From UHGV virus genome UHGV-1443384: a stretch of DNA of 10,772 nt; one strand, written 5' to 3'. The notes beneath the pieces were generated by a model. That model worked only from the letters and a program-made list of their open reading frames with translations, was not told the origin of the DNA and made no database searches. Origin of the DNA: a virus. Below are positions 83 to 10,772 of the stretch, piece by piece. Both the position numbers and the translations under genes were made by a program. The first letter of the stretch is position 1. Each line of letters begins with the position of its first letter.

Positions 83-103
83 TGATAGATAACTATCATT
101 TAT
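83..103. repeat. Putative attL core (direct repeat tgatagataactatcatttat)
   Basis: Matches 10561-10581 (tgataaataactatcatctat) at 19 of 21 positions. Arm-type repeats lie on the element side of both copies, as expected for attL and attR. Confidence 0.45.
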
Positions 104-170
104 ATCATTTAGTTAATTAGTCTTTATTTTTCATTATGTTGCAAATAACAAGCCTGTCAAAAACAGTGAT

Positions 171-227
171 ATTAACTACACCATTAACTACACCGCTTCA
201 CGAACAATATCGAACAACCGCGAACAA
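171..227. promoter_or_regulatory. Integrase arm-type binding repeats, left arm (2x ATTAACTACACC, 3x CGAACAA phased at 10 bp)
   Basis: ATTAACTACACC at 171-182 and 183-194; CGAACAA at 201, 211 and 221. The same motif pair recurs at 10417-10484 next to int. Confidence 0.45.
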
Positions 228-267
228 AGATCAACACGCTTTAATCATTATCATTTTCCGGCTATCC

Positions 268-456
268 GTCATGAAGCTAGTGGATGATCTGCGTGGTGAT
301 TTCCACCATTCAGAGCAGGGGCGGTCATCATGCCCATGCCATAACAAAAACCCCATATTCGTGGTTTTTCTGTGTTGTGGCTATTCTGCCGTTGCCGTGC
401 TGGTGGATATTTCCGTTATGGGGATCACCATATCGGCATCATGCCCACCAGCGTGA
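268..456 (+). CDS. Hypothetical small protein (62 aa) with Cys-rich polar N-terminus and a single hydrophobic helix; doubtful
   Basis: ATG at 268 in frame with track ORF 136..456. Hydrophobic stretch IFVVFLCCGYSAVAVLVDISVMGITI. No clear Shine-Dalgarno. Confidence 0.15.
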   Translation, partial: VMKLVDDLRGDFHHSEQGRSSCPCHNKNPIFVVFLCCGYSAVAVLVDISVMGITISASCPPA

Positions 457-1076
457 AGCGTTTTTCATTTTTCGCGGGTATAAAAAATCGATGGGGCTGG
501 CAGTCCAGAAGACGTCAGGGTACAGAGATTTGCCCCGCCCCTCCCTGTGCATAAGCACAATAAGTAACCGAAGGCGGAATTCCGCCCTCGGTACTCACAT
601 ATGAGAAACGATATTTCTTCCACCGATACCCTTTATTTGGGTATCGCGAGTAAGCCCCAAAATCTGGGTGTTACTCTTACTACCCAAACTACGGGTAGTT
701 TCCGTAGTTTCATGGTCGAGTTGCAGATCTGCAACTCACCCACCAGCCAACGCAATTTTGCGTTATCGGGAATATCAGCAAGTTAGCACAGAAATAACTC
801 AGGCAGATACAAAACTCAATTTTGAGGTTTGCTTATTATTCAGTTGGTTAACATCCCTCAAAACTGAGGACTGTACCCAAAGCTATTTTTATAGCTCCGG
901 CCTCAGCCGTTGGCTGTTCCCGAAAATATCAGTCAGTTACGTTAACCGCTAATTTCTGCCTTTGGTGTGAATACTGTCGCTTTAACCTACGGTAATTGTT
1001 CTGCCTCGGTGCGTGTCACCGCCGTAACCGCGCCAGTAAACCCCACAGATTCGTGGTTTTCCTGAATATCAGGAAT

Positions 1077-1358
1077 CTACCGCCGCAACCGTTCCGGCTT
1101 CTTCCACTGGTAAGTATTTTTCGCGCTCTCCCTCCGTTGTTGAGAACGGCGACGGTATGCCAGCAACTCAAGGACTCTTGTTCGTATGTTGCGCATATCC
1201 ACGCCGTTAAGCTCAATACCATCACGGCGCATCACCTCAGCAACAACACGCACATAATTTTCAGCGGTCACGCTGTCCGGCTGTGTGGCCTGTTCGTCAT
1301 GCTGCTGGCTGATTCCGACGACGCGGCGGATTAATCCCAGTAGTTCGGCTTCAGTCAT
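1077..1358 (-). CDS. Hypothetical protein (93 aa), Arg-rich C-terminus, immediately downstream of TerS
   Basis: Track ORF; RBS GAGGG 5 nt before the ATG. Sits where lambda has the large terminase gene A but is far too small and unrelated to it. Confidence 0.55.
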   Translation of the reverse strand: MTEAELLGLIRRVVGISQQHDEQATQPDSVTAENYVRVVAEVMRRDGIELNGVDMRNIRTRVLELLAYRRRSQQRRESAKNTYQWKKPERLRR

Positions 1359-1431
1359 TGTGCCCTCATCGTTCTGATAGCCTGGTGTCGTCGGGTCCTT
1401 CCTGGAATTATGGCCCGTTACGGGGCGGCGG

Positions 1432-1974
1432 TTACTCGCCTTTGTTCTCTAGCAACTTCTCAGGCGCGTTTCCGGTAGTTTCCATCAGGTAATCAGCCAG
1501 TATCTGTGGCAGGTTTTCGTCAAGTCTTGCACATGCGTTACATGCTTTGGCTATTTCCCTTTTTAGTTCATCCAGCATATACGGCCTTATATCGGGAAAG
1601 CGCCTTTGCATTGTGAGCGGGAGGCTGTCCATGATTGATGAAATCTGACTCGCTAGTTTTGAAATCGCGTAGATGCAAAACTTTGTATCAATCACCTCGC
1701 CGCGTTCGCGCTCGTTTTTAAGTTCCTGCGCTTCCGCCTGGGCCGTCATTAATCTGATTCTTACGCGTAAAAGTTCATCATCATCAATCTCGCCTTTGTC
1801 GTTTGTAAGCTGGTTAATTGCATTGTTAACCCTATTGTCTATCACGCTAGCAACATCATAAAACGCCTCACGGCCTTTACGCTCAACGGGAGTTACTCCC
1901 CACTTGTCGAACGCTGTCGCACTTACGCGGCAGCTTTGCGCCATAGTTTTTTTGTTCATCAGGTGCGATTTCAT
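1432..1974 (-). CDS. Terminase small subunit, lambda Nu1-like (satellite TerS / packaging-redirection candidate)
   Basis: C-terminal two thirds align with lambda Nu1 (ours RLMTAQAEAQELKNERERGEVIDTKFCIYAISKLASQISSIMDSLPLTMQRRFP vs lambda RLTRAQADAQELKNARDSAEVVETAFCTFVLSRIAGEIASILDGLPLSVQRRFP). The N-terminal DNA-binding part is diverged. Start chosen at the ATG preceded by GGGGA; the track ORF extends to 1986. Confidence 0.85.
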   Translation of the reverse strand: MKSHLMNKKTMAQSCRVSATAFDKWGVTPVERKGREAFYDVASVIDNRVNNAINQLTNDKGEIDDDELLRVRIRLMTAQAEAQELKNERERGEVIDTKFCIYAISKLASQISSIMDSLPLTMQRRFPDIRPYMLDELKREIAKACNACARLDENLPQILADYLMETTGNAPEKLLENKGE

Positions 1975-2001
1975 CAATATCCCCACTTAGTTAAGGTTTC
2001 A

Positions 2002-2150
2002 GGTTGGTGTGTTGGTGTTATCTTTCCCTTTTTATTCATAGAGATAGAGCGAAAAACAAAACCACCACCACCAACCCGAAAAGGCTCATAAATAGCGAAA
2101 ATCCGCAAGGTCGCCGCCCCGTAGCCTGCCGGATCGCCGGAAAGGACCCG
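2002..2150 (-). other. Lambda-type cos site (cosQ-cosN-I1 conserved, cosB-like repeats diverged)
   Basis: Minus strand reads cgttctggctggcgggtcctttccggcgatccggcaggctacg GGGCGGCGACCT tgcggattttcgctatttatgag, near-identical to the lambda right end, the 12-nt cohesive end (plus 2108-2119) and the start of the left end. Inverted ACCACC/GGTGGT-rich repeats at 2002-2019 and 2060-2077 replace the lambda R sites. Confidence 0.85.
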
Positions 2151-2175
2151 CCAGCCAGAACGGGCCCTAATTTCA

Positions 2176-2520
2176 TCAACCAATCAACTTATTGCGTCCT
2201 TTCAGGGCATTACGCCTGGCGCGTTCAATCTTGAGGCATAACGCCGCATCAGGTTTTTCGGGGGTGGGAACAAGGCAATAATTTGATGCGCGCGGAATGT
2301 TGTTAATCCACGCAACAACCTCGCTTAAATACCATGCCTTGCGCCCTTTCGTAACCTGTACGCGTTCGGGGAACTCTCCGCGAGCCTCAAGGTTTAGCAA
2401 TGTGCGACGGCTAAGGGTTGTAAGCTCCACTACCTGATCCATATCAACAAGGCGCTCGCTTAAACTCATTTTGTCATCGATATCTAATAGCTCTCGTAGC
2501 TGACTATCTCTTTCAATCAT
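2176..2520 (-). CDS. AlpA-family HTH DNA-binding protein (114 aa), second copy in the element
   Basis: Motif VVELTTLSRRTLLNLEARGEFPERVQVTKGRKAWYLSEVVAWI fits the phage AlpA / excisionase-type HTH pattern. RBS GAGGT; start overlaps the stop of the upstream gene. Confidence 0.65.
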   Translation of the reverse strand: MIERDSQLRELLDIDDKMSLSERLVDMDQVVELTTLSRRTLLNLEARGEFPERVQVTKGRKAWYLSEVVAWINNIPRASNYCLVPTPEKPDAALCLKIERARRNALKGRNKLIG

Positions 2521-2529
2521 TCTCGTACC

Positions 2530-2871
2530 TCACACACGTGCCAGCGGCTGAACAGAAATACCTGAGCCAACAAACGCAGCAACTTTTGCTGATAGTTGTG
2601 TTACAGACTCAGGCCAGTTCAGAGCATCAACATTTAAGACGCCGGTTTTATAAACCTGAGCCTGCGTTTTTGTCGCTGTATCGATTTGTACAGCGGAAAC
2701 ATAAACAGCTTTGCCTGCGCTCGTTCCATCCCATACCACCAGTGCACCAGTTGCATCTTCTTGCATCAGTGGCGTAAATGCAGGAATTACCCCTTTATTA
2801 GCTGAAAATATCCCCAACGTAGTAACCAGTGCTTCAGTGCCAGCCATGAGTTCAGTGTAATGAGTAGCCAT
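2530..2871 (-). CDS. Head decoration protein, lambda gpD-like (113 aa)
   Basis: Aligns with lambda gpD (TPLM...LVVWDGT...YKTG...WPE...AAFVGSGISV vs TPLM...LVAWDGT...YKSG...WPE...TAFAGTAISIV). Strong RBS GGGGGAG; 9 bp after the capsid gene. Confidence 0.8.
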   Translation of the reverse strand: MATHYTELMAGTEALVTTLGIFSANKGVIPAFTPLMQEDATGALVVWDGTSAGKAVYVSAVQIDTATKTQAQVYKTGVLNVDALNWPESVTQLSAKVAAFVGSGISVQPLARV

Positions 2872-2880
2872 TGCTCCCCC

Positions 2881-3921
2881 TTAACCAATGCGAACGGTAA
2901 CAAAACGATTGATGCGGGCCGGTATTGGTTGCGGTGCGCTGTGCGTCTGTACATATTCAATAGCCGGATCACCTGGTACGATGTAATTTTTCGGCGCAAG
3001 TTCGGCTTTAGTCAGCCCCATTCTGATTAACTCAGGATCCTGAATGCCACCGTAGGCAACGATGCCCTGTAATGATGTGTTGCCAAGCACCATCAAATCA
3101 GGATCAAGGAAATATTTTTCTTTGCCGTCCTCGTCGGTATAACGTCCGCTATATACCACAATAGCAACATCGCCAACGTAACCCTTGAAGCTTACAGAAT
3201 CCCCAAGATTTTTCAGGGCCGTTTCAAGAACGGAATTAGATCCCCGTCGAGTATCAAGGCAATCTTTTACTGCTTTAAAGGCGCGGTATTTTTTCCATAC
3301 GTTGCGGCCCATTACGATGATATTTGTAGTACCTTCGCTGATTTCTGCGTACTCTTCGATGTCATCGTTTGGATCAAATGTTGATAAATCTCTACCGCTC
3401 CACTCCGTGCCGCCGGACTGCGTGATAATATTTTGTGGTTTTATATTCCAGTCCAGTTCATAACGTTCAATTCCATCACCTTCAATGATATTTTTCCCCG
3501 TTGTAACCGCCTGAACAGCAAGCCACTCAATACGCGCACGAATTGCCTGCGCTTGTCTTACTAACGCTCGCTTTATTTTGAAACTGCGTGATGAATATGC
3601 ATTGAATTGTTCAGGTGATACGCCTGGTTGACGAACGGCTATTTTATTTGGGTCGATACTACTTTTTGGCTTCATATAGCCAGGGCGAATTACTTTTGAT
3701 TCGTAGCCTTCATCGCGTGAGACTTTACTACCAACCATAGGGGAACAAAATGCAGCCATCGGGATGTCTGGATCGTCAATAATATCAAGCGCAATATCCC
3801 GCGTCTCAAATGTAACGACTCGCTTAAAAAACAGGTTTATAAATAAAGAATTAATCTGCCATTGAATATCTTCGGCATTAACAACCTGTATTAACATGGC
3901 TGGCGAATATAAATCACTCAT
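2881..3921 (-). CDS. Major capsid protein, lambda gpE-like (346 aa)
   Basis: Collinear similarity to lambda gpE over the full length (NIITQSGGTEWSGRDLSTFDPNDDIEEYA vs NNITQSGGTEWSKRDKSTYDPTDDIEAYA; FKAVKDCLDTRRGSNSVLETALKNLGDSVSFKGYVGDVAIVVYSG vs FKAVKEKLDTRRGSNSELETAVKDLGKAVSYKGMYGDVAIVVYSG). RBS AAGAGG. Confidence 0.9.
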   Translation of the reverse strand: MSDLYSPAMLIQVVNAEDIQWQINSLFINLFFKRVVTFETRDIALDIIDDPDIPMAAFCSPMVGSKVSRDEGYESKVIRPGYMKPKSSIDPNKIAVRQPGVSPEQFNAYSSRSFKIKRALVRQAQAIRARIEWLAVQAVTTGKNIIEGDGIERYELDWNIKPQNIITQSGGTEWSGRDLSTFDPNDDIEEYAEISEGTTNIIVMGRNVWKKYRAFKAVKDCLDTRRGSNSVLETALKNLGDSVSFKGYVGDVAIVVYSGRYTDEDGKEKYFLDPDLMVLGNTSLQGIVAYGGIQDPELIRMGLTKAELAPKNYIVPGDPAIEYVQTHSAPQPIPARINRFVTVRIG

Positions 3922-3973
3922 ATAACCTCTTAATACTTAGTAAAAGTGTCGCGTTAATTTTATCATCTGCCTT

Positions 3974-4002
3974 GTTTGGCATCTTTATGCATTGCTATGC
4001 AA
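3974..4002 (-). promoter_or_regulatory. Candidate promoter of the capsid-cos-TerS operon with a 13-bp palindrome in the spacer
   Basis: Minus strand TTGCAC-17-CATAAA (weak -10, suggesting activator dependence). Palindrome ATTGCtatGCAAT at 3981-3993 lies in the spacer. Confidence 0.3.
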
Positions 4003-4106
4003 TAGTGTGCAAAGTTTCAATCTTCGTTTATTTATCCGGCGTTACGTGTCATTCTGTACAGCGTTACAAGTTCAAAGACATAAATTATTCTCTTTGGTGA
4101 TGAAAG

Positions 4107-4132
4107 GGTCGGAATATTCCGGCCTTTTTTTT
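4107..4132 (+). terminator. Rho-independent terminator, plus strand (stem GGTCGG/CCGGCC followed by T8)
   Basis: Hairpin 4107-4124 followed by tttttttt at 4125-4132. Implies a short plus-strand transcript originating in 3950-4100. Confidence 0.55.
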
Positions 4133-4149
4133 GCGTAGTGTGACGGACT

Positions 4150-4177
4150 CAACTGATAAAAGCCGGATTGCTCCGGC
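4150..4177 (-). terminator. Rho-independent terminator for the ssb transcript (minus strand)
   Basis: Minus strand hairpin GCCGGAgcaaTCCGGC followed by TTTTATCAGTT, 17 nt after the ssb stop. Confidence 0.5.
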
Positions 4178-4193
4178 CTCTGTTACTCGTTGC

Positions 4194-4616
4194 TTAAAAC
4201 GGTATGTTATCCCCGTACGGATCATCATTTCCCGCCTGTTGTTTTGCCCTGTTCAGCGCGTCAGTAGCCTGGCCCTGTTGACCTTTTTTGCCGCCCGGTT
4301 GCGCCGTTCGCGCACTGATTACGCTGTCTGCAATAACCTGCCAGCCCTGCCGCGTTTCCCCGTTCTGGCCTGTCCACTGGCTCACCTGCATGTTACCCGC
4401 CACGCTCACCAGTTCGCCTTTGTGGTGTTTTGCCAGTGCGTCGGCCTGTCTGCCAAACGCCAGGACAGATAACCACATCGTCGCCGTTCCGTCATCTGCC
4501 TGGCTGCACGGCAGGGGAACCGCCATACTCGCCATCGCCATTTGTGTCCCTTTGCTGGTGGTCTTTAACTGCGGGTCAGCCACCAGCCGCCCGTAAGCCG
4601 CTATCTGTGCTGTCAT
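4194..4616 (-). CDS. ssb: Single-stranded DNA-binding protein (SSB-like OB fold, 140 aa)
   Basis: N-terminal YGRLVADPQLKTTSKG and WLSVLAFGRQAD fit the SSB OB fold. Gly/Gln-rich linker and acidic tip DDPYGDNIPF resemble the SSB C-terminal DDDIPF tail. Confidence 0.75.
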   Translation of the reverse strand: MTAQIAAYGRLVADPQLKTTSKGTQMAMASMAVPLPCSQADDGTATMWLSVLAFGRQADALAKHHKGELVSVAGNMQVSQWTGQNGETRQGWQVIADSVISARTAQPGGKKGQQGQATDALNRAKQQAGNDDPYGDNIPF

Positions 4617-4858
4617 GCTGTCTGCTCTCCGGTTTTAACGTTGATGGTTGTCACCTGTTCCGCTTCGGCAATCTCCCGTTCTGTCAGCGTGGCAAAGTTT
4701 GCTGCCGCCGTGGTCATGAATGCGCTTATCAGTTCGGGATGTGCTTTTGCGTACCCTTCTCCCGCGTTGCGGTCGATGATTTTTATCGCCACCCTCAGCC
4801 AGTGTTCTGTCAAATCAAGGGCGTGAGATTGTGGTTTTTTTGCGTGCTTCGTTGTCAC
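4613..4858 (-). CDS. Hypothetical protein (81 aa), translationally coupled to ssb
   Basis: GTG start with RBS TGAGGT. Its TGA stop overlaps the ssb ATG (ATGA overlap). Confidence 0.55.
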   Translation of the reverse strand: MTTKHAKKPQSHALDLTEHWLRVAIKIIDRNAGEGYAKAHPELISAFMTTAAANFATLTEREIAEAEQVTTINVKTGEQTA

Positions 4859-4904
4859 AGGCTTTACCTCACAGCAATAAAATAAAATTTTTGCATTTTA
4901 ACCC

Positions 4905-5131
4905 TTCACCTGTTCACCTTTTGAGATTTTCCCTTTTTATTCATAATGTTAAGGGGTGAACAGTTTCACAAAAACTATTCACCAACTGTTCACCACTGTT
5001 CACCCTTAAAGCTCAATAAATAATCAAAAAGGTGAACAGTGAATAGTTTGGTGAACAGTTCACAAATAACTGTTCACCATATAATATACTGATATAAAAG
5101 ATATTTATAACAGGGTGAACAGTGGTGAACA
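4905..5131. repeat. Replication origin with P4 alpha-type iterons (about 10 copies of TGTTCACC / GGTGAACA, both orientations) and AT-rich unwinding stretch
   Basis: Octamers at 4911, 4955, 4987, 4998, 5031, 5050, 5071, 5114 and 5124, plus partial copies. AT-rich block at 5080-5110. Immediately downstream of the primase gene. Confidence 0.8.
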
Positions 5132-5145
5132 GTTATTCCATAAGT

Positions 5146-6963
5146 TTAATTTTTGCTGTCGTCATTTGTGACCGATGCACATGATGGCATCCAGTCTTCT
5201 GAATCCTCTGTCAGTGTCACATTTGAACGCAAACCGTGCTTCGTTTTCCGTTTTATATACTCCCTGCCATATTCCGCCATTGCCCCCGGCATATCTTTAC
5301 CGAAGCGCGTCAGTGTTACAGGTTTACCGAATCCGTGTGCCCTCATATATGCCAGATAGGCGTGATAAAGATACCTGCGCGGACTGAACGGAATAATTTC
5401 GGCATTACCCACTAACAGACCATCACACATTACCGACGACATGAGATAGCCACAGAAGTCCACCAGCGAATCGCCCTCGCGTTTTATCACCAGAGCTTCT
5501 TCTGATTTCTGCTGCTCATACAGCAGGCGTTTAGCTTCGTCCTGGTCAGAAAAACGAGTAAGCAGATGGCGAATCACAACCGCCAGCTCTCCTTCTATTT
5601 TTTCTGCCAGCATGGGGTCGCGCTCGTTCTCCGGTACAACCTCCGAAAAATTGAATATCACCCGACGACGTGAGATCCCCCCGCTGCGGTCACTGAATGA
5701 CATGGCGTTATTGTTCACCGCCAGCACGACCGCCTGAATGCGTGTTGAGTAGGGGGCTTTATGCTTCGGGTCGATTGCCACCTTGTCACCGCCTGTAATA
5801 GCCTTAATTCCTGCGCCATCACCAGCGTAGCGGGTCATATCCGGCATGATAATCAGCGAAAAGCCAACCACTAACGCGCGTTCCCTTGCATCTTCCAGCG
5901 CCTTCATGCTTGCCGATACTGTGTTGGCCTTACCCGCCAGCATGGTGCAAATCTCCGCCATCACGCTTTTACCACTTCCCCCTGGACCTGTTACCTCAAT
6001 GAATAACTGCCAGTCGTACCGGTTCGCCAGCACCATGAATAATGCAGCCAGCACGCGATCCGTCTTGCGGTCATTCTCTGCCACCGAGCAGCGTAACCAC
6101 TTCCAGAAATTCGGCGCATGTGTTGCCAGCGTTTCCCCCTCTGCTGGTGGGCTGAAAGGTAATTCACTGGCAATTAACAACCAGTCGTTTTTGTTATGCT
6201 CCCGAAAATTACCTGTTCTGGTATCAAATACCCCGTTACTGAATCCAATCAGGTTACGGGCTGTATTCCCCATTACAGGCAAACTTAACTTCATGGTATC
6301 GACCGCCGATTTAATGGCGTTCTGCGAATAGCTGATCTCCGCATCAATGAAAATCTGTGCCATAGCTCGCTGTAATTCTTTATCCTGTACTGGCTCCCAT
6401 ACAACGCCGTTGTAATGGTGAACAGTGTCAGAGTCAGCATGAATCGCCAGTTCACCGCCATAATGTGCCAGGAGAACTTCGCCGCGTTGACTTGCTCCCA
6501 TCTGGTTAAGCGCCAGTGATGAAGCGTTATCGTCTTTTACCCGCTCTTTTTTCTTTACAGGCAGTTCAACTACCTTTTTCTTTTCCGTCAGCTCTCCCCG
6601 CTCACGTTCCAGATATTCGCGCCAGTTCTCCCGTTTCTGGCTGTGCATTCCTTCAGGGTAATAATCAGCATCCCTGACACCTGCCGCTGCCAGTTTCTGC
6701 CCGATGGTATTAACAAGCCCCGGACGCAATAACCCCGCCTGATAGAGACGCACGCGATAGCGTCCGTCCGGTACGATTTGCAGGTTGTCCAGTTCGGCAA
6801 GTTGTTGCTCTCCAAGCCAGACAGGTGGCACGTTATCGCCAGCCAGTCGCCCGTCCTGTTCCTGCCACTGTTTCGCATGTGCCCACGCATCACTACCCGC
6901 AAAAATGATGACTTCCGTCATTTTGTCACGCGGCTGGTGTTTTAAATTTGGCGCTTTTTTCAT
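5146..6963 (-). CDS. DNA primase/helicase, P4 alpha-like (PICI pri-rep type)
   Basis: Walker A motif VTGPGGSGKSV in the central region; large size; adjacent TGTTCACC iterons. Start set at the ATG (6963) preceded by GGAGAG and overlapping the upstream stop; the track ORF begins at GTG 6978. Confidence 0.85.
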   Translation of the reverse strand: MKKAPNLKHQPRDKMTEVIIFAGSDAWAHAKQWQEQDGRLAGDNVPPVWLGEQQLAELDNLQIVPDGRYRVRLYQAGLLRPGLVNTIGQKLAAAGVRDADYYPEGMHSQKRENWREYLERERGELTEKKKVVELPVKKKERVKDDNASSLALNQMGASQRGEVLLAHYGGELAIHADSDTVHHYNGVVWEPVQDKELQRAMAQIFIDAEISYSQNAIKSAVDTMKLSLPVMGNTARNLIGFSNGVFDTRTGNFREHNKNDWLLIASELPFSPPAEGETLATHAPNFWKWLRCSVAENDRKTDRVLAALFMVLANRYDWQLFIEVTGPGGSGKSVMAEICTMLAGKANTVSASMKALEDARERALVVGFSLIIMPDMTRYAGDGAGIKAITGGDKVAIDPKHKAPYSTRIQAVVLAVNNNAMSFSDRSGGISRRRVIFNFSEVVPENERDPMLAEKIEGELAVVIRHLLTRFSDQDEAKRLLYEQQKSEEALVIKREGDSLVDFCGYLMSSVMCDGLLVGNAEIIPFSPRRYLYHAYLAYMRAHGFGKPVTLTRFGKDMPGAMAEYGREYIKRKTKHGLRSNVTLTEDSEDWMPSCASVTNDDSKN

Positions 6964-7259
6964 TTCTGCTCTCTCCACGCGGCAATCATGTTTTTCAGTT
7001 CCTGTAGTTTTTTATCAACATCCATACATGACACATGGTTATTTCTGGAAGGCGGGATTTCCCGCCGGAATCTGCTAATAAAGATCTCCACGTTCAGCGA
7101 ACTATGAAATGAATAGCCATCACGAATAAAATACACACGGTCAAACATCAGTTCTTTTACCGTTACTCTGTTACCGTTCTTATCCAGATAAATAGCGCCG
7201 GGGATAATTTTGGGGTGTGCATAACCGCTGGCAGTCAAGCCAGATAAATATGTTCTCAT
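6960..7259 (-). CDS. Hypothetical protein (99 aa), coupled to the primase
   Basis: Track ORF; TGA stop overlaps the primase ATG. Occupies the position of the small genes upstream of alpha in P4-like elements. Confidence 0.55.
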   Translation of the reverse strand: MRTYLSGLTASGYAHPKIIPGAIYLDKNGNRVTVKELMFDRVYFIRDGYSFHSSLNVEIFISRFRREIPPSRNNHVSCMDVDKKLQELKNMIAAWREQK

Positions 7260-7265
7260 GATTAT

Positions 7266-7586
7266 TTATCCCCGATTTGAATCAGTATTCGCTTTCTTTA
7301 TGGCATTTAATGCATCTGTGGTATTTTCAATGGTGCACCGTAACGAAATATCAAACTGCCCAAGCATTGCCAGTAACAAACCGATATTACCCATATCAAT
7401 GCGCATGGCCTTTTCGTCATAGTCCTCATTTTCTGACGCATGCCACATCAGGCTACCAATTGACGCAATACCCATTGATATATTGTCAGTAGCCCCATCC
7501 GCAGCGGAATAAACCTTTTTAGCAATATCATGCTCACAGTTAAAATGCGGATTAATCAGGTACTGGTAATTTGACATATCAGGCAT
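7266..7586 (-). CDS. Hypothetical protein (106 aa)
   Basis: Track ORF; strong RBS AGGGGG before the ATG at 7586; acidic protein. Confidence 0.55.
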   Translation of the reverse strand: MPDMSNYQYLINPHFNCEHDIAKKVYSAADGATDNISMGIASIGSLMWHASENEDYDEKAMRIDMGNIGLLLAMLGQFDISLRCTIENTTDALNAIKKANTDSNRG

Positions 7587-7782
7587 GGCACACCCCCTGA
7601 CGAATACGGGCAGCGAATACCATCACGCAGCCAGCCGGAGATTGCTGGCGTGCTTCCTGTTCGCTGGTGGCCTCAATGGTAATCACGCGCGGTTGTGCCG
7701 TGCTCAGGGCGATAAAACGCCAGATGTATTTATTCAGGTTGTGCGAGTCCCGCCCTTGCGGGTGTGTGGTATGATTTCTCAT
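7579..7782 (-). CDS. Small protein (67 aa), possibly Icd-like (host cell-division inhibitor family); first gene of the primase operon
   Basis: Internal ATG at 7782 with RBS GAGGTA within the spurious 359-aa track ORF; stop overlaps the next start. C-terminus ...SPAGCVMVFAARIRQGVCHA recalls Icd-like proteins from memory only. Confidence 0.4.
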   Translation of the reverse strand: MRNHTTHPQGRDSHNLNKYIWRFIALSTAQPRVITIEATSEQEARQQSPAGCVMVFAARIRQGVCHA

Positions 7783-7880
7783 AGCTACCTCGATACTTTC
7801 GCTATCGTTGGTGGTTAGACGCCCTGCATGTGTTGCGAGCACTGCGGGGCGTTGCTTAATTTGAGTGACAAAACTCAAAC

Positions 7881-7959
7881 TGTGCGCACAGATTAAAATC
7901 ATGTGTGCGCACATGTCAATACTTAACATCTCATTTTTTTTGCTGTATTGTGTGCGCCC
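7881..7959. promoter_or_regulatory. Divergent promoter/operator switch: TGTGCGCACA palindromes at 23-bp phasing overlapping back-to-back promoters
   Basis: Perfect TGTGCGCACA at 7881-7890 and 7904-7913 (inside the 16-bp palindrome catgtgtgcgcacatg), half-site at 7950-7959. Minus strand TTGACA-17-TTTAAT has one operator in its spacer and one at the start site. Candidate plus promoter TTAACA-17-TATTGT. Confidence 0.5.
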
Positions 7960-7987
7960 ATAAAGTCCATTTAAGTGAGGTGCATCA

Positions 7988-8185
7988 ATGTCTAGCGGTA
8001 ACACAAACAACAAATCAGCAAAGAAAAATATTCGATTCCCACATGAGCTTATAGATGGGATTGATGCCAGCGTTGAACAAGAAAAATTAACTAATCCTAG
8101 TGCTAATTTTTCCGCATGGGTCTTAGATGCCTGTGGACGCAAATTAAAATATGAACAGCGCCGGAAGGCCAAAGAATCAGAATAA
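7988..8185 (+). CDS. YlcI/YnfO-family (DUF3950-like) small protein, possible ribbon-helix-helix regulator (65 aa)
   Basis: Strong RBS GTGAGGTG. Motif NIRFPHELIDGIDASVEQ...NFSAWVLDACGRKL resembles E. coli prophage YlcI/YnfO proteins (NIRFP...NFSAWV..AC.RRL), recalled from memory. Confidence 0.55.
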   Translation: MSSGNTNNKSAKKNIRFPHELIDGIDASVEQEKLTNPSANFSAWVLDACGRKLKYEQRRKAKESE

Positions 8186-8242
8186 TCACTATCAGCGCCG
8201 TGGTGTGAGTAACTACGGCGCATTGCTATGCAGGGCAACACA

Positions 8243-8416
8243 ATGACCGATAAAGAATTGACCAAAACATTATCACCGACACGGAAAAGACGGCGCAGAA
8301 AGATAGAGCATGAATCAGAAAGATTCGCACCTTGTTCGTTTGCTCTTGAGAAATTCCTTAAAGAGCGCAGGAAAAAACTCTCGTTGCAAACCTTGGAACG
8401 AACCGAATCTGACTGA
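8243..8416 (+). CDS. Hypothetical highly basic small protein (57 aa, RKRRRRK tract)
   Basis: Downstream of the YlcI-like gene in the same orientation; operon ends at the terminator at 8481-8508. Weak RBS; the start could be the ATG at 8228. Confidence 0.35.
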   Translation: MTDKELTKTLSPTRKRRRRKIEHESERFAPCSFALEKFLKERRKKLSLQTLERTESD

Positions 8417-8480
8417 TCAAATTGCCCACCAGCCAGCAAATCGCTATGATGTTCGGGCTTATGTTTAGTGTTTTCCCATT

Positions 8481-8508
8481 GGCGACCGCCCCCGGTCGCC
8501 TTTGTTTT
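8481..8508 (+). terminator. Rho-independent terminator, plus strand (GGCGACC gccccc GGTCGCC followed by TTTGTTTT)
   Basis: 7-bp GC stem with T-rich tail, between the plus-strand two-gene operon and the convergent alpA. Confidence 0.6.
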
Positions 8509-8527
8509 ATGTGTCATATGCTCCCCT

Positions 8528-8737
8528 TTACGCTGCCTTTCCTGAATTAATGCGATCCCGGCTTTTAACCCATTCCATAACCTCAGACTTAACCCAGCCA
8601 ACCGAACGACCTCCAAGACTGATACGGGAGGGAAAGCGGCCTTGTTTTTCCATCTCATAACGAGTTGTACGGCAAACGCCTGTTAGCTCTCTGCATTCTT
8701 TTTCACGGATTACACGATCTTCATTTATTTCGCGCAT
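8528..8737 (-). CDS. alpA: AlpA-family transcriptional regulator / excision-associated HTH protein (69 aa)
   Basis: Motif RVIREKECRELTGVCRTTRYEMEKQGRFPSRISLGGRSVGWVKSEVMEWV fits the AlpA pattern. Start taken at the internal ATG (8737); the track ORF extends to GTG 8821. Lies downstream of int as in PICI and P4-like elements. Confidence 0.75.
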   Translation of the reverse strand: MREINEDRVIREKECRELTGVCRTTRYEMEKQGRFPSRISLGGRSVGWVKSEVMEWVKSRDRINSGKAA

Positions 8738-9154
8738 AAAAAGCCCTACATAAAATTTACGTATAGAAATTTTTGTTTCGCTGTGGATATACGGGAAGGA
8801 ATACTTCTTAGCTTTTTTCACCTCTTAAATTGAATACGTAACCTTTCTGAACTTTATGTTCGTCAAAGTTCGCTAGAGTTTGCTGCTGTTCATAAAATCG
8901 TGTCACGAGTTTTTAAGCGACGCAACAAAAAATGTCGTCATTTGGTATGATACTTGAATTATCTTATTAAAAACAAATAGATAAACCATCAGGTGTTGGA
9001 ATAATCAAGAAACAGAAAATAAGAACTCAGAAGAAGATATTTCAATTTTTTCGATGGTTGACACATATAAAGTGAAGATATTTGCAGATATTTTCCGATA
9101 TTCTACGATTTATTCACGGCTGTAATCTCTTAAAGAAAAAACAGCCGTAATTTG

Positions 9155-10393
9155 TCAAGAATTTTGGGTGTAAATTCGCGGGGTCATAACAACGATTTTT
9201 TCATCATTGTTCTGGAGAAGCTCGAGACGGTCTACCCATAGATTAAGAGCATCACGTTTTGCATCAAGATAGCGGGAGTGGTTATAGACTCGTTGCATCC
9301 CTGGCATCTGGTGGGCTGTAAGCTGCTCGACAATATGCGGATCCACGCCTAAATCGTTCAGCATGGTTGTAAATGTGTGCCGGATATCGTGTAACGTCCA
9401 GGGGGCTTGATTAATTCGTCTGTGCGCTGTTCTTCCGTACTCTGCTACCGAAGATTGTCCTTTCAGTTCACCAAGCAATAAGCCCGTGTGTCTGTTCTGC
9501 TCCACCAGCTGCGTGATGAACGGCAAAATGCTTTCCGGTATTGGCCTGAATATGGCGACCTTCGTTTTGCTGTGCTCCTTCGGTACCGTCCAGAGCATTT
9601 CTTTAAAATCCCACTCCTGCACCTCAGAGCGCCTTAGCTCGGTGGTACGGCATCCGAAAACAATCAGGAGGCGAATTAGGGCGCTGTAGTACGGCGGGAA
9701 TATTTTGTCATCCAGGGCGCGGAGTAATTCCCCAAGCTCCTTGTTTGTTAGTACGCGCTCGCTCACTTCTGCTTTTTTTCCCACATCACCGACAACCATA
9801 TCATCAAGAACGTTGCTGATTGCGTATCGTCGTTTTCGGCAGTACTTAAGCGCCTGTTTACATACCTGTAGCAAAAATCCGGCAGATACTGGGCTTCGCT
9901 TTGCCATCTGGTCAAAACATGCCAACCAGTGCCGTAGCTCGCATTTTTCCAACGGCATAGCGCCAATCTGGCTGATTATGTGTTTATTGATCCGGCTTTT
10001 CAGTGATTCGTAGTCAGTGCGCTTTTCCTTTGCATACGATTCAAGCCAGTAAGTGAGCGCTTCCTTAACTGTCACGGGGGCTAACGCATCCTGTACAGCA
10101 CGATTAAGCTCATAGCGCGGATTTTTCCCCTCAGCCAGCCAAGCGCGACACTGTGCCGCTTTTTCCCTGGCTGCTTTCAGGCTCAGATCGGGATAATTGC
10201 CCAGTCTCAGACGTTCCGGTGATACCTGCCTACCAGTTCCAGCCCTGTAAGTGAAATACCAGGTTAACAGGCCGCTGGTGGAATGTCTTACGCTAAGATT
10301 GCCACCGTCATTAAAAAAGGCGTTTTTTGTGGTTGGTGATCCGCTTAATTTTCGTAAAAGAGTGTCGCTAAGTCTATGAATTGCGCTGCTCAT
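9155..10393 (-). CDS. int: Tyrosine site-specific integrase, P4-type (412 aa)
   Basis: C-terminal catalytic motifs WTLHDIRHTFTT (H-x-x-R) and RVYNHSRYL (catalytic Tyr); size and N-terminal arm-binding-type region typical of the P4 integrase family; adjacent to the attR arm repeats. Confidence 0.9.
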   Translation of the reverse strand: MSSAIHRLSDTLLRKLSGSPTTKNAFFNDGGNLSVRHSTSGLLTWYFTYRAGTGRQVSPERLRLGNYPDLSLKAAREKAAQCRAWLAEGKNPRYELNRAVQDALAPVTVKEALTYWLESYAKEKRTDYESLKSRINKHIISQIGAMPLEKCELRHWLACFDQMAKRSPVSAGFLLQVCKQALKYCRKRRYAISNVLDDMVVGDVGKKAEVSERVLTNKELGELLRALDDKIFPPYYSALIRLLIVFGCRTTELRRSEVQEWDFKEMLWTVPKEHSKTKVAIFRPIPESILPFITQLVEQNRHTGLLLGELKGQSSVAEYGRTAHRRINQAPWTLHDIRHTFTTMLNDLGVDPHIVEQLTAHQMPGMQRVYNHSRYLDAKRDALNLWVDRLELLQNNDEKIVVMTPRIYTQNS

Positions 10394-10416
10394 GTTTCGC
10401 GTTTCCGGTCATCAAA

Positions 10417-10484
10417 ATTAACTACACCATTGACTACACCGTGCATCGTACAAGGGCAAACAGTGACGAACAAGGGCGAACAAG
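10417..10484. promoter_or_regulatory. Integrase arm-type binding repeats, right arm (ATTAACTACACC, ATTGACTACACC, CGAACAAG repeats) overlapping the int promoter region
   Basis: Same motif pair as 171-227; CGAACAAG at 10467 and 10477, with degenerate copies at 10446 and 10540-10557. Confidence 0.45.
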
Positions 10485-10560
10485 AAAAACAAAATTTTCC
10501 TTTATAATCATATCGATGAATAAACACAACACACTACCACGAACACCAGCGAACACTAGC

Positions 10561-10581
10561 TGATAAATAACTATCATCTAT
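10561..10581. repeat. Putative attR core (direct repeat tgataaataactatcatctat)
   Basis: 19 of 21 identity with 83-103; lies on the outer side of the right arm repeats. Confidence 0.45.
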
Positions 10582-10772
10582 CGTTGGCATCAGCGACATC
10601 TGTCACATTCCTGTCAATAGCGTTAACTGCTTCAAATTTTTGATTCATACCTGCCCCTTGTCCCCTGTCAAATGCTTGACGGCTCGCCCTAATTCTCTAA
10701 ATTGTATTTCTAGAGTTGGCGAGGTTTTGAACAGCCCCCTCTCTGACCCCGGTTTATTCCATCTTACTTGTA

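Follow-up and report, generated by a model that had tools for sequence, protein, structure and literature searches.

The stretch of DNA analysed here, called the window below, is the 10,772-nt UHGV virus genome UHGV-1443384, and all positions given are those of this whole stretch. It is a piece of Escherichia coli chromosome that reaches from 4 nt upstream of the clpS start codon to 26 nt before cspD, and it carries an element at positions 83-10581 whose genes, which include a tyrosine integrase gene, lie nearly all on the minus strand. We are highly confident that this element is one integrated Gram-negative phage-inducible chromosomal island (PICI) of the EcCICFT073 type, a member or variant of the islands EcCIIHE3034 and EcCI18098, with integration, arm sites and life cycle as proposed below. 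The attachment (att) regions at its two ends, and the host gene that they touch, comprise the following features.

Positions 83-103, no strand: attL core TGATAGATAACTATCATTTAT, with the attB base at position 6 and the element base at position 18; homology to the empty site stops at 103.
Positions 89-99 and again 10567-10577, no strand: perfectly shared 11-bp segment ATAACTATCAT, the strand-exchange region, reverse complement of the published ATGATAGTTAT.
Positions 171-194, plus strand: P' arm pair, a 12-bp repeat ATTAACTACACC, putative integrase arm-type sites, conserved in the islands EcCICFT073 and EcCIDI14.
Positions 199-226 (repeats at 201-226), plus strand: three copies of CGAACA with 10-nt spacing in the P' arm, candidate sites for an AlpA-type accessory protein or excisionase or for the integrase.
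Positions 10417-10440, plus strand: P arm pair ATTAACTACACC / ATTGACTACACC, oriented like the P' pair.
Positions 10465-10555 (repeats at 10467-10482 and 10540-10555), plus strand: CGAACA repeats with 10-nt spacing in the P arm.
Positions 10561-10581, no strand: attR core TGATAAATAACTATCATCTAT, with the element base at position 6 and the attB base at position 18; homology to the empty site starts at 10561.
Positions 10574-10648, minus strand: host small-protein gene yljB, with its TGA stop at core positions 14-16, intact at attR.

An earlier reading of the window, made from the sequence only, had proposed 21-bp direct repeats at 83-103 and 10561-10581 as the ends of the element, and both the coordinates and the sequences were exact. 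The two 21-mers are identical at 19 of 21 positions, the mismatches being at core position 6 (G/A) and position 18 (T/C), and a search of the window with the attB form of the core, allowing up to three mismatches, returned these two sites as the sole matches. A 21-mer match appeared in none of 200 dinucleotide-preserving shuffles of the window. The 21-mers are the outermost repeats, but they are not, as had been claimed, the only long direct repeat at the ends, since a 66-nt module in the arms forms a longer, weaker one.

The empty site was searched for in 5426 complete E. coli genomes with a query that consisted of the left flank, one copy of the core and the right flank, brought to a length of 469 nt by adding adjacent sequence. 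In 5057 of these genomes, K-12 among them, the joined flanks with a single core aligned in one uninterrupted piece at an identity of 99.4% or more, which is the result of a check that the sequence-only reading had itself suggested. With a second query, composed of int, attR and the right flank and scored as occupied at a query coverage of at least 80%, the site was found occupied with this integrase in 367 genomes; empty and occupied sites together account for 5424 of the 5425 genomes with any match. In the empty genomes the right-hand homology starts at base 1407 of the latter query, corresponding to window position 10561, and the left-hand homology stops at 103. Since the homology breaks at these two points, the limits of the element are 83 and 10581 and the true repeats do not lie elsewhere. 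The empty site, the hybrid nature of the two cores and the homology breaks all agree with the assignment of the 21-mers as attL and attR, and the full set of att structures of an integrated element was found: attL, attR, a single-core empty site, reciprocal hybrid cores and an attP junction. One unit of the element is 10,478 bp long. All sampled occupants of the site are PICI-like elements of 9.5-11 kb; together with the genome counts above and the published listing of the site for PICIs, this makes it a specific att site that prophages do not use.

The position of the crossover can be deduced from the cores themselves. Alignment with K-12 gives TGATAGATAACTATCATCTAT as the chromosomal attB. 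In attL, position 6 carries the attB base (G) and position 18 the element base (T), whereas in attR the situation is reversed (A at position 6, C at position 18). From this reciprocal sorting of the two mismatches it follows that attP has the predicted core TGATAAATAACTATCATTTAT and that strand exchange falls within core positions 7-17, ATAACTATCAT. The perfect core is thus 11 bp long, and the 21-mer consists of this core plus imperfect homology. The same sorting was found in all seven occupied genomes examined, among them IHE3034, an O157:H7 strain whose cargo differs and an O20:H12 strain; across the seven, the cargo goes down to 67-68% nucleotide identity in places.

The predicted attP 21-mer (A6/T18) is present in two public contigs, one from IMG/VR and one from an ENA metagenome. 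The IMG/VR contig (10,780 bp) contains the clpS flank, attL, the whole element, the P arm, the attP core and the P' arm once more, with a distance of 10,474 bp between attL and the attP core; the ENA contig (1,953 bp) runs from the P arm through the attP core into the left end of the element. To judge from their structure, such junctions would be expected from excised circles, from replicative concatemers or from tandem insertions, and they serve as an in-silico counterpart of the PCR for the excised form that the sequence-only reading had suggested. There were six matches to the attP 21-mer among viral and metagenome contigs, and the other four were discarded as unrelated chance matches. The attR 21-mer, when searched for in one genome per species, gave a single match in a metagenome-assembled genome of the Chitinispirillaceae, which was likewise set aside as unrelated chance and is uninformative on host range.

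Next to each core, on the element side, lies a tandem pair of TTAACTACACC with a 12-nt period (171-194 and 10417-10440), amounting to four matches against 0.17 expected. The offsets of these pairs are fixed in the seven occupied genomes, at +89 from the start of the attL core and -143 from the start of the attR core. The two arms as a whole represent a 66-nt module, 71% identical and directly repeated. Because the repeats have the same strand and the same internal order on both arms, they are direct repeats and not mirror images, and the mirrored arm-site architecture that had been described for this element is to be understood only in the sense that arm repeats lie inside both cores. The TTAACTACACC pairs are the likely binding sites for the N-terminal domain of the integrase. 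EcCICFT073 carries such pairs at +85 and -148 around a different core, AAATATGTCC, in its target roxA(ycfD)-phoQ. The annotated attP of satellite P4 has the same layout, with a 20-bp core, a tandem 12-bp arm pair on each side and int beside one arm, and P4 also shares with the window an integrase with an arm-binding N-terminal domain and an excisionase of the Vis/AlpA type; its integrase is only 23% identical to that of the window, however, and the sequence of its arm repeats is unrelated. For EcCIDI14 (E. coli clone D i14, NC_017652.1, 247500-261500), the published att site core CGGTGTAGTTAATGGTGTAGTTAATT is the reverse complement of the arm-site pair that occurs on both arms of the window element and of EcCICFT073. 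Judging by this match, this sequence is unlikely to be the true core of the island, which resides inside an ISEc45 transposase gene; a short shared ATTTATAA is present at roughly the expected distance.

The chromosomal attB occupies the stretch 86-106 nt upstream of clpS and shares the final 8 nt of yljB. As far as the sequence tells, the element regenerates the end of this target gene, as tRNA-targeting elements do. If the crossover fell to the right of core position 18, the attP base at that position would change the last codon of yljB from Arg to Lys. P4 targets a tRNA-Leu gene, and there is no tRNA gene at the clpS-cspD site. A scan of the whole window with ARAGORN detected none either, in line with the earlier remark that the core is not an obvious tRNA 3' end. 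The additional remark that this would be unusual for a P4-type integrase does not apply to this lineage, since the listed att genes of E. coli PICIs comprise pairs of flanking genes, tqsA and an IS110 transposase gene, with no tRNA gene among them (Fillol-Salom et al. 2018, PMC6092414, Table S1).

Between the att regions, the element contains the following genes and sites, listed from the integrase end.

Positions 9155-10393, minus strand: tyrosine integrase with an arm-binding N-terminal domain (PF13356 and PF00589).
Positions 8528-8737, minus strand: AlpA-family helix-turn-helix (HTH) regulator/excisionase, 56% identical to EcCICFT073 AlpA.
Positions 7988-8185, plus strand: YlcI/YnfO family protein, divergently oriented.
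Positions 7579-7782, minus strand: Icd-like cell-division inhibitor, 98% identical to its EcCICFT073 homologue.
Positions 6960-7259, minus strand: DUF4222 protein.
Positions 5146-6963, minus strand: Pri-Rep, a primase-helicase of the D5_N/Pox_D5 type, with 48% identity both to EcCICFT073 Pri and to residues 290-776 of P4 alpha.
Positions 4909-5133, no strand: putative replication origin with ten copies of the iteron GGTGAACAGT, directly 3' of pri-rep.
Positions 4194-4616, minus strand: single-stranded DNA-binding protein (SSB), 70% identical to EcCICFT073 SSB.
Positions 2881-3921, minus strand: homologue of the lambda gpE-type major capsid protein (PF03864), 55% identical to EcCICFT073 c1499.
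Positions 2530-2871, minus strand: homologue of the lambda gpD-type head decoration protein.
Positions 2176-2520, minus strand: second AlpA-family HTH protein.
Positions 2100-2150, minus strand: lambda-type cos directly upstream of terS, with a cosQ-like segment and the exact 12-nt cosN GGGCGGCGACCT at 2108-2119.
Positions 1432-1974, minus strand: small terminase (TerS) of the Nu1 family (phrog_57; PF07471).
Positions 1386-1430, plus strand: truncated second cos with cosQ and the left part of cosN, resembling EcCICFT073 cos2 and inverted with respect to the full cos.
Positions 1077-1358, minus strand: conserved PICI protein of 93 amino acids, 78% identical to its EcCICFT073 homologue.

The iteron GGTGAACAGT matches the window 12 times where 0.5 matches would be expected, and in a sequence-level comparison its position corresponds to the ori layout described for these islands (PMC6092414). 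With the 114-amino-acid protein of the second AlpA-family gene, a PDB search returned an AlpA-family structure only. A 359-amino-acid open reading frame (ORF) at 7579-8658 on the minus strand is almost certainly spurious, as near-identical copies of the element are annotated there with small genes, namely the icd-like one, ylcI/ynfO in divergent orientation and one more. The window has an intact ssb gene; in a 99.4%-identical copy from strain WP9-S17-ESBL-11 (8195-8617) it is annotated as a pseudogene with an internal stop.

This organisation is the one by which Gram-negative PICIs were defined (Fillol-Salom et al. 2018). An integrase, an AlpA-type regulator and a Pri-Rep module are present, the size is within the range of ~8-15 kb and tail genes, lysis genes and a full structural module are lacking, only the gpE-like and gpD-like proteins and TerS being encoded; the predicted origin, with its iterons directly 3' of pri-rep, is also in the place where it occurs in such islands. 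The site itself is on record as well. Table S1 of the same study (ISME J, PMC6092414) lists EcCIIHE3034 (NC_017628.1, 920272-930825, 10.5 kb) and EcCI18098 with att gene "cspD-clpS" and core ATGATAGTTAT, which is the reverse complement of ATAACTATCAT. A literature search for PICI together with clpS and cspD gave no relevant main-text match ("CSPD" being a chemiluminescent reagent), as the site stands in this supplementary table.

EcCIIHE3034 has attL and attR 21-mers identical to those of the window, an integrase that is 99% identical, the same size of 10.5 kb and the same gene order. The ends of the two islands are 93-99.8% identical, whereas the interior is mosaic, with 67-78% nucleotide identity in the capsid and primase regions, and the decoration gene of EcCIIHE3034 is followed by a gene for a 137-amino-acid protein where the window has the second AlpA-like HTH gene. 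With EcCICFT073 the window has a common order of int, alpA, icd, DUF4222, pri-rep, ori, ssb, gpE-like and gpD-like genes, cos and the 93-amino-acid ORF, and identities range from 98% for Icd through 76-77% for Int and 70% for SSB to 55% for the major capsid protein and 48% for Pri. Both also have a lambda-type cosQ and cosN. They differ in that EcCICFT073 encodes RppA (c1503) and PerC and no TerS, whereas the window encodes a Nu1-family TerS and neither Rpp nor PerC; the second AlpA-family HTH gene and terS occupy the positions of the 137-amino-acid gene and rppA of EcCICFT073.

The integrases found at the clpS-cspD site have 92-99% mutual identity (98-99% in the core-binding domain) and ~75% identity to integrases that act at other sites. 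Another PICI-like element, ~9.5 kb long, uses this att site in O157:H7 strain FRIK2069 (16083-25572). Its att cores are identical to those of the window, its capsid gene is a different one, and it has a TerS, an additional gene for a 257-amino-acid protein beside int and an integrase that is 92% identical to that of the window.

The cos sequences of the element were compared with those of lambda, phi80 and CFT073. Two of them flank terS, and the truncated one follows EcCICFT073 cos2 across cosQ and into cosN, where it breaks off after the first 8-9 bases. In EcCICFT073, packaging and interference are mediated by Rpp, which heterodimerises with the TerS of the helper (Fillol-Salom et al. 2019, PMC6739421), and islands of this Rpp-type cos class are recognised by an encoded Rpp. 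The window carries the Nu1-family TerS instead: a tblastn search with RppA gave nothing but a hit on the alpA gene at E = 0.19, no window protein matched the RppC structures in the PDB, and a PDB search with the TerS returned nothing. As an Rpp is missing and a Nu1-type TerS is encoded directly downstream of cos, the element may redirect packaging by means of its own small terminase.

A life cycle can be envisaged on this basis. For EcCICFT073, integration dependent on int and attP, AlpA-controlled induction, replication by Pri-Rep from ori, and lambda-type cos packaging into full-size helper capsids directed by Rpp were described (PMC6092414, PMC6739421). At the clpS-cspD site, the tyrosine integrase (9155-10393) would have recombined the attP core TGATAAATAACTATCATTTAT with attB TGATAGATAACTATCATCTAT, and strand exchange inside ATAACTATCAT would have left a hybrid core at each end and restored the stop codon of yljB. 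If the element behaves like EcCICFT073, a lambdoid helper phage would induce AlpA-controlled excision, Pri-Rep would replicate the circle from the iteron origin, and concatemers would be cut at the lambda-type cos and packed into particles derived from the helper, each probably receiving a multimer of about four units. Four units amount to 41.9 kb, or ~86% of the lambda genome. Within the packaging limits of lambda, 41.9 kb would fit a full-size head. By comparison with the prototype, this arithmetic fits the packaging of EcCICFT073 in full-size lambda-type capsids that was reported.

Several points weigh against the proposed EcCICFT073-type island and its life cycle. Induction, replication and packaging of this copy are extrapolated from its homology to EcCICFT073, whereas the presence/absence polymorphism, the reciprocal hybrid cores, the public attP junction, the intact integrase and the conserved arm pairs come from direct comparison of sequences. 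For helper-dependent induction, packaging and high-frequency transfer, the evidence is indirect and consists of the lambda-type cos and the attP junction in metagenome contigs. The attP junctions in the two contigs could stem from tandem integration instead of free circles, the assignment of the arm sites depends on conservation and analogy, and the ssb pseudogene in close relatives suggests that some copies are decaying. Furthermore, with a TerS in place of an Rpp homologue, the mechanism of packaging may differ from that of the prototype.

The decay of ssb in close relatives, the truncation of one of the two cos sequences and the fact that mobility of this copy is read from its sequence would also suit an immobile remnant, that is, a genomic island or defective prophage with relic terminal repeats that has lost the ability to excise. 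We consider this very unlikely, as all core genes are intact in the window, the attP junction occurs in two independent public contigs, and the site is cleanly present or absent over 5424 genomes, with several diverged cargo variants that have identical att ends. Such clean presence and absence, combined with diverged cargo between identical ends, points to repeated and recent integrase-mediated events. The major capsid protein, the decoration protein and the TerS could alternatively belong to a capsid-forming PICI (cf-PICI), which builds its own small capsids and takes only tails from its helper. Neither the ORF list nor the RefSeq annotation of near-identical copies contains a portal, a prohead protease, head-tail connectors or a large terminase (TerL), all of which are found in a genuine cf-PICI at the thiM site. 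In EcCICFT073, moreover, deletion of the capsid or decoration homologue did not restore normal lambda plaques, and this island was reported in full-size phage capsids (PMC6092414). A capsid-forming lifestyle is therefore extremely improbable for the element.

There is hardly any chance that the element is a P4-like satellite, which would depend on P2, control capsid size by a Sid-type mechanism and be able to persist as a plasmid. The domain architecture of the integrase is P4-type, the attP layout and the size are similar, the AlpA proteins of the window share 40-41% identity with P4 Vis, and Pri shares 48% with the C-terminal part of P4 alpha. When all P4 proteins were compared with the window by tblastn, however, Int (23%), this part of alpha (48%) and Vis (40-41%) were the only ones to match, while sid, psu, delta, epsilon, cI, cII, gop and beta were not found. 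Both cos and TerS are of the lambda type and not of the P2/P4 type, and the gene order is that of EcCICFT073; a P4-like nature is already largely refuted. The size had been called typical of PICIs and P4-like satellites alike, and only the first half of this comparison stands: the element is a 10.5-kb PICI and, with no sid, psu, delta, epsilon or cI, not P4-like.

The left end of the PICI calls for separate discussion, because window positions 104-1076 comprise about 1 kb in which no convincing gene is present. An 11-pair GC-rich hairpin is found at 567-592, and a motif of ~24 nt occurs three times, at 762, 916 and 1056; a longer repeat unit behind these three copies was considered and dropped, as only the ~24-nt motif is common to them. 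The segment 242-460 is 96% identical to part of the capsid-forming PICI that is integrated at thiM in another strain. An Rfam scan of the whole window at E <= 1 produced only meaningless microRNA matches far under the gathering scores and leaves the left end unexplained.

Between the attL core and the P' arm pair, a sigma-70-like site (TTGACA-16 nt-CATAAT; 160 to 133, minus strand) agrees with the consensus at 11 of 12 positions and faces out of the element, across attL, toward clpS. The O157:H7 island at the same att site has a weaker promoter-like site (9/12) at the equivalent place, and a scan for an outward promoter at the matching position of EcCICFT073 was negative. It is conceivable, though doubtful, that the att region acts as a switch, in which the outward promoter drives clpS-clpA across attL when the island is integrated and faces int across attP when it is circular. 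The insertion is co-directional between yljB and clpS. In the integrated state, equally tentatively, int would be placed downstream of yljB, and the promoter would replace the upstream transcription that the 10.5-kb insert severs. The lack of an equivalent promoter in EcCICFT073 makes the idea of a circularisation-dependent int promoter weaker, and a literature search on yljB yielded nothing useful on its transcription. If the switch were real, a host protease-adaptor operon would be rewired by the att region of the island, and expression of int would be coupled to the topology of the element.

The island family and its att site were already published in 2018, so that the finding is correct but ordinary and the understanding of PICIs is unchanged by it. 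Its value is mainly that of a validation, in which a mobile element was delimited to the base from raw sequence alone. It adds small refinements to the published att site, namely the 21-bp extended core, the two mismatches that confine the crossover to at most 11 bp, the overlap of attB with the yljB stop codon, and the in-silico sightings of attP. For the family, it adds that pairs of putative arm sites in the P4 style are conserved among related PICI integrases that have different core specificities.

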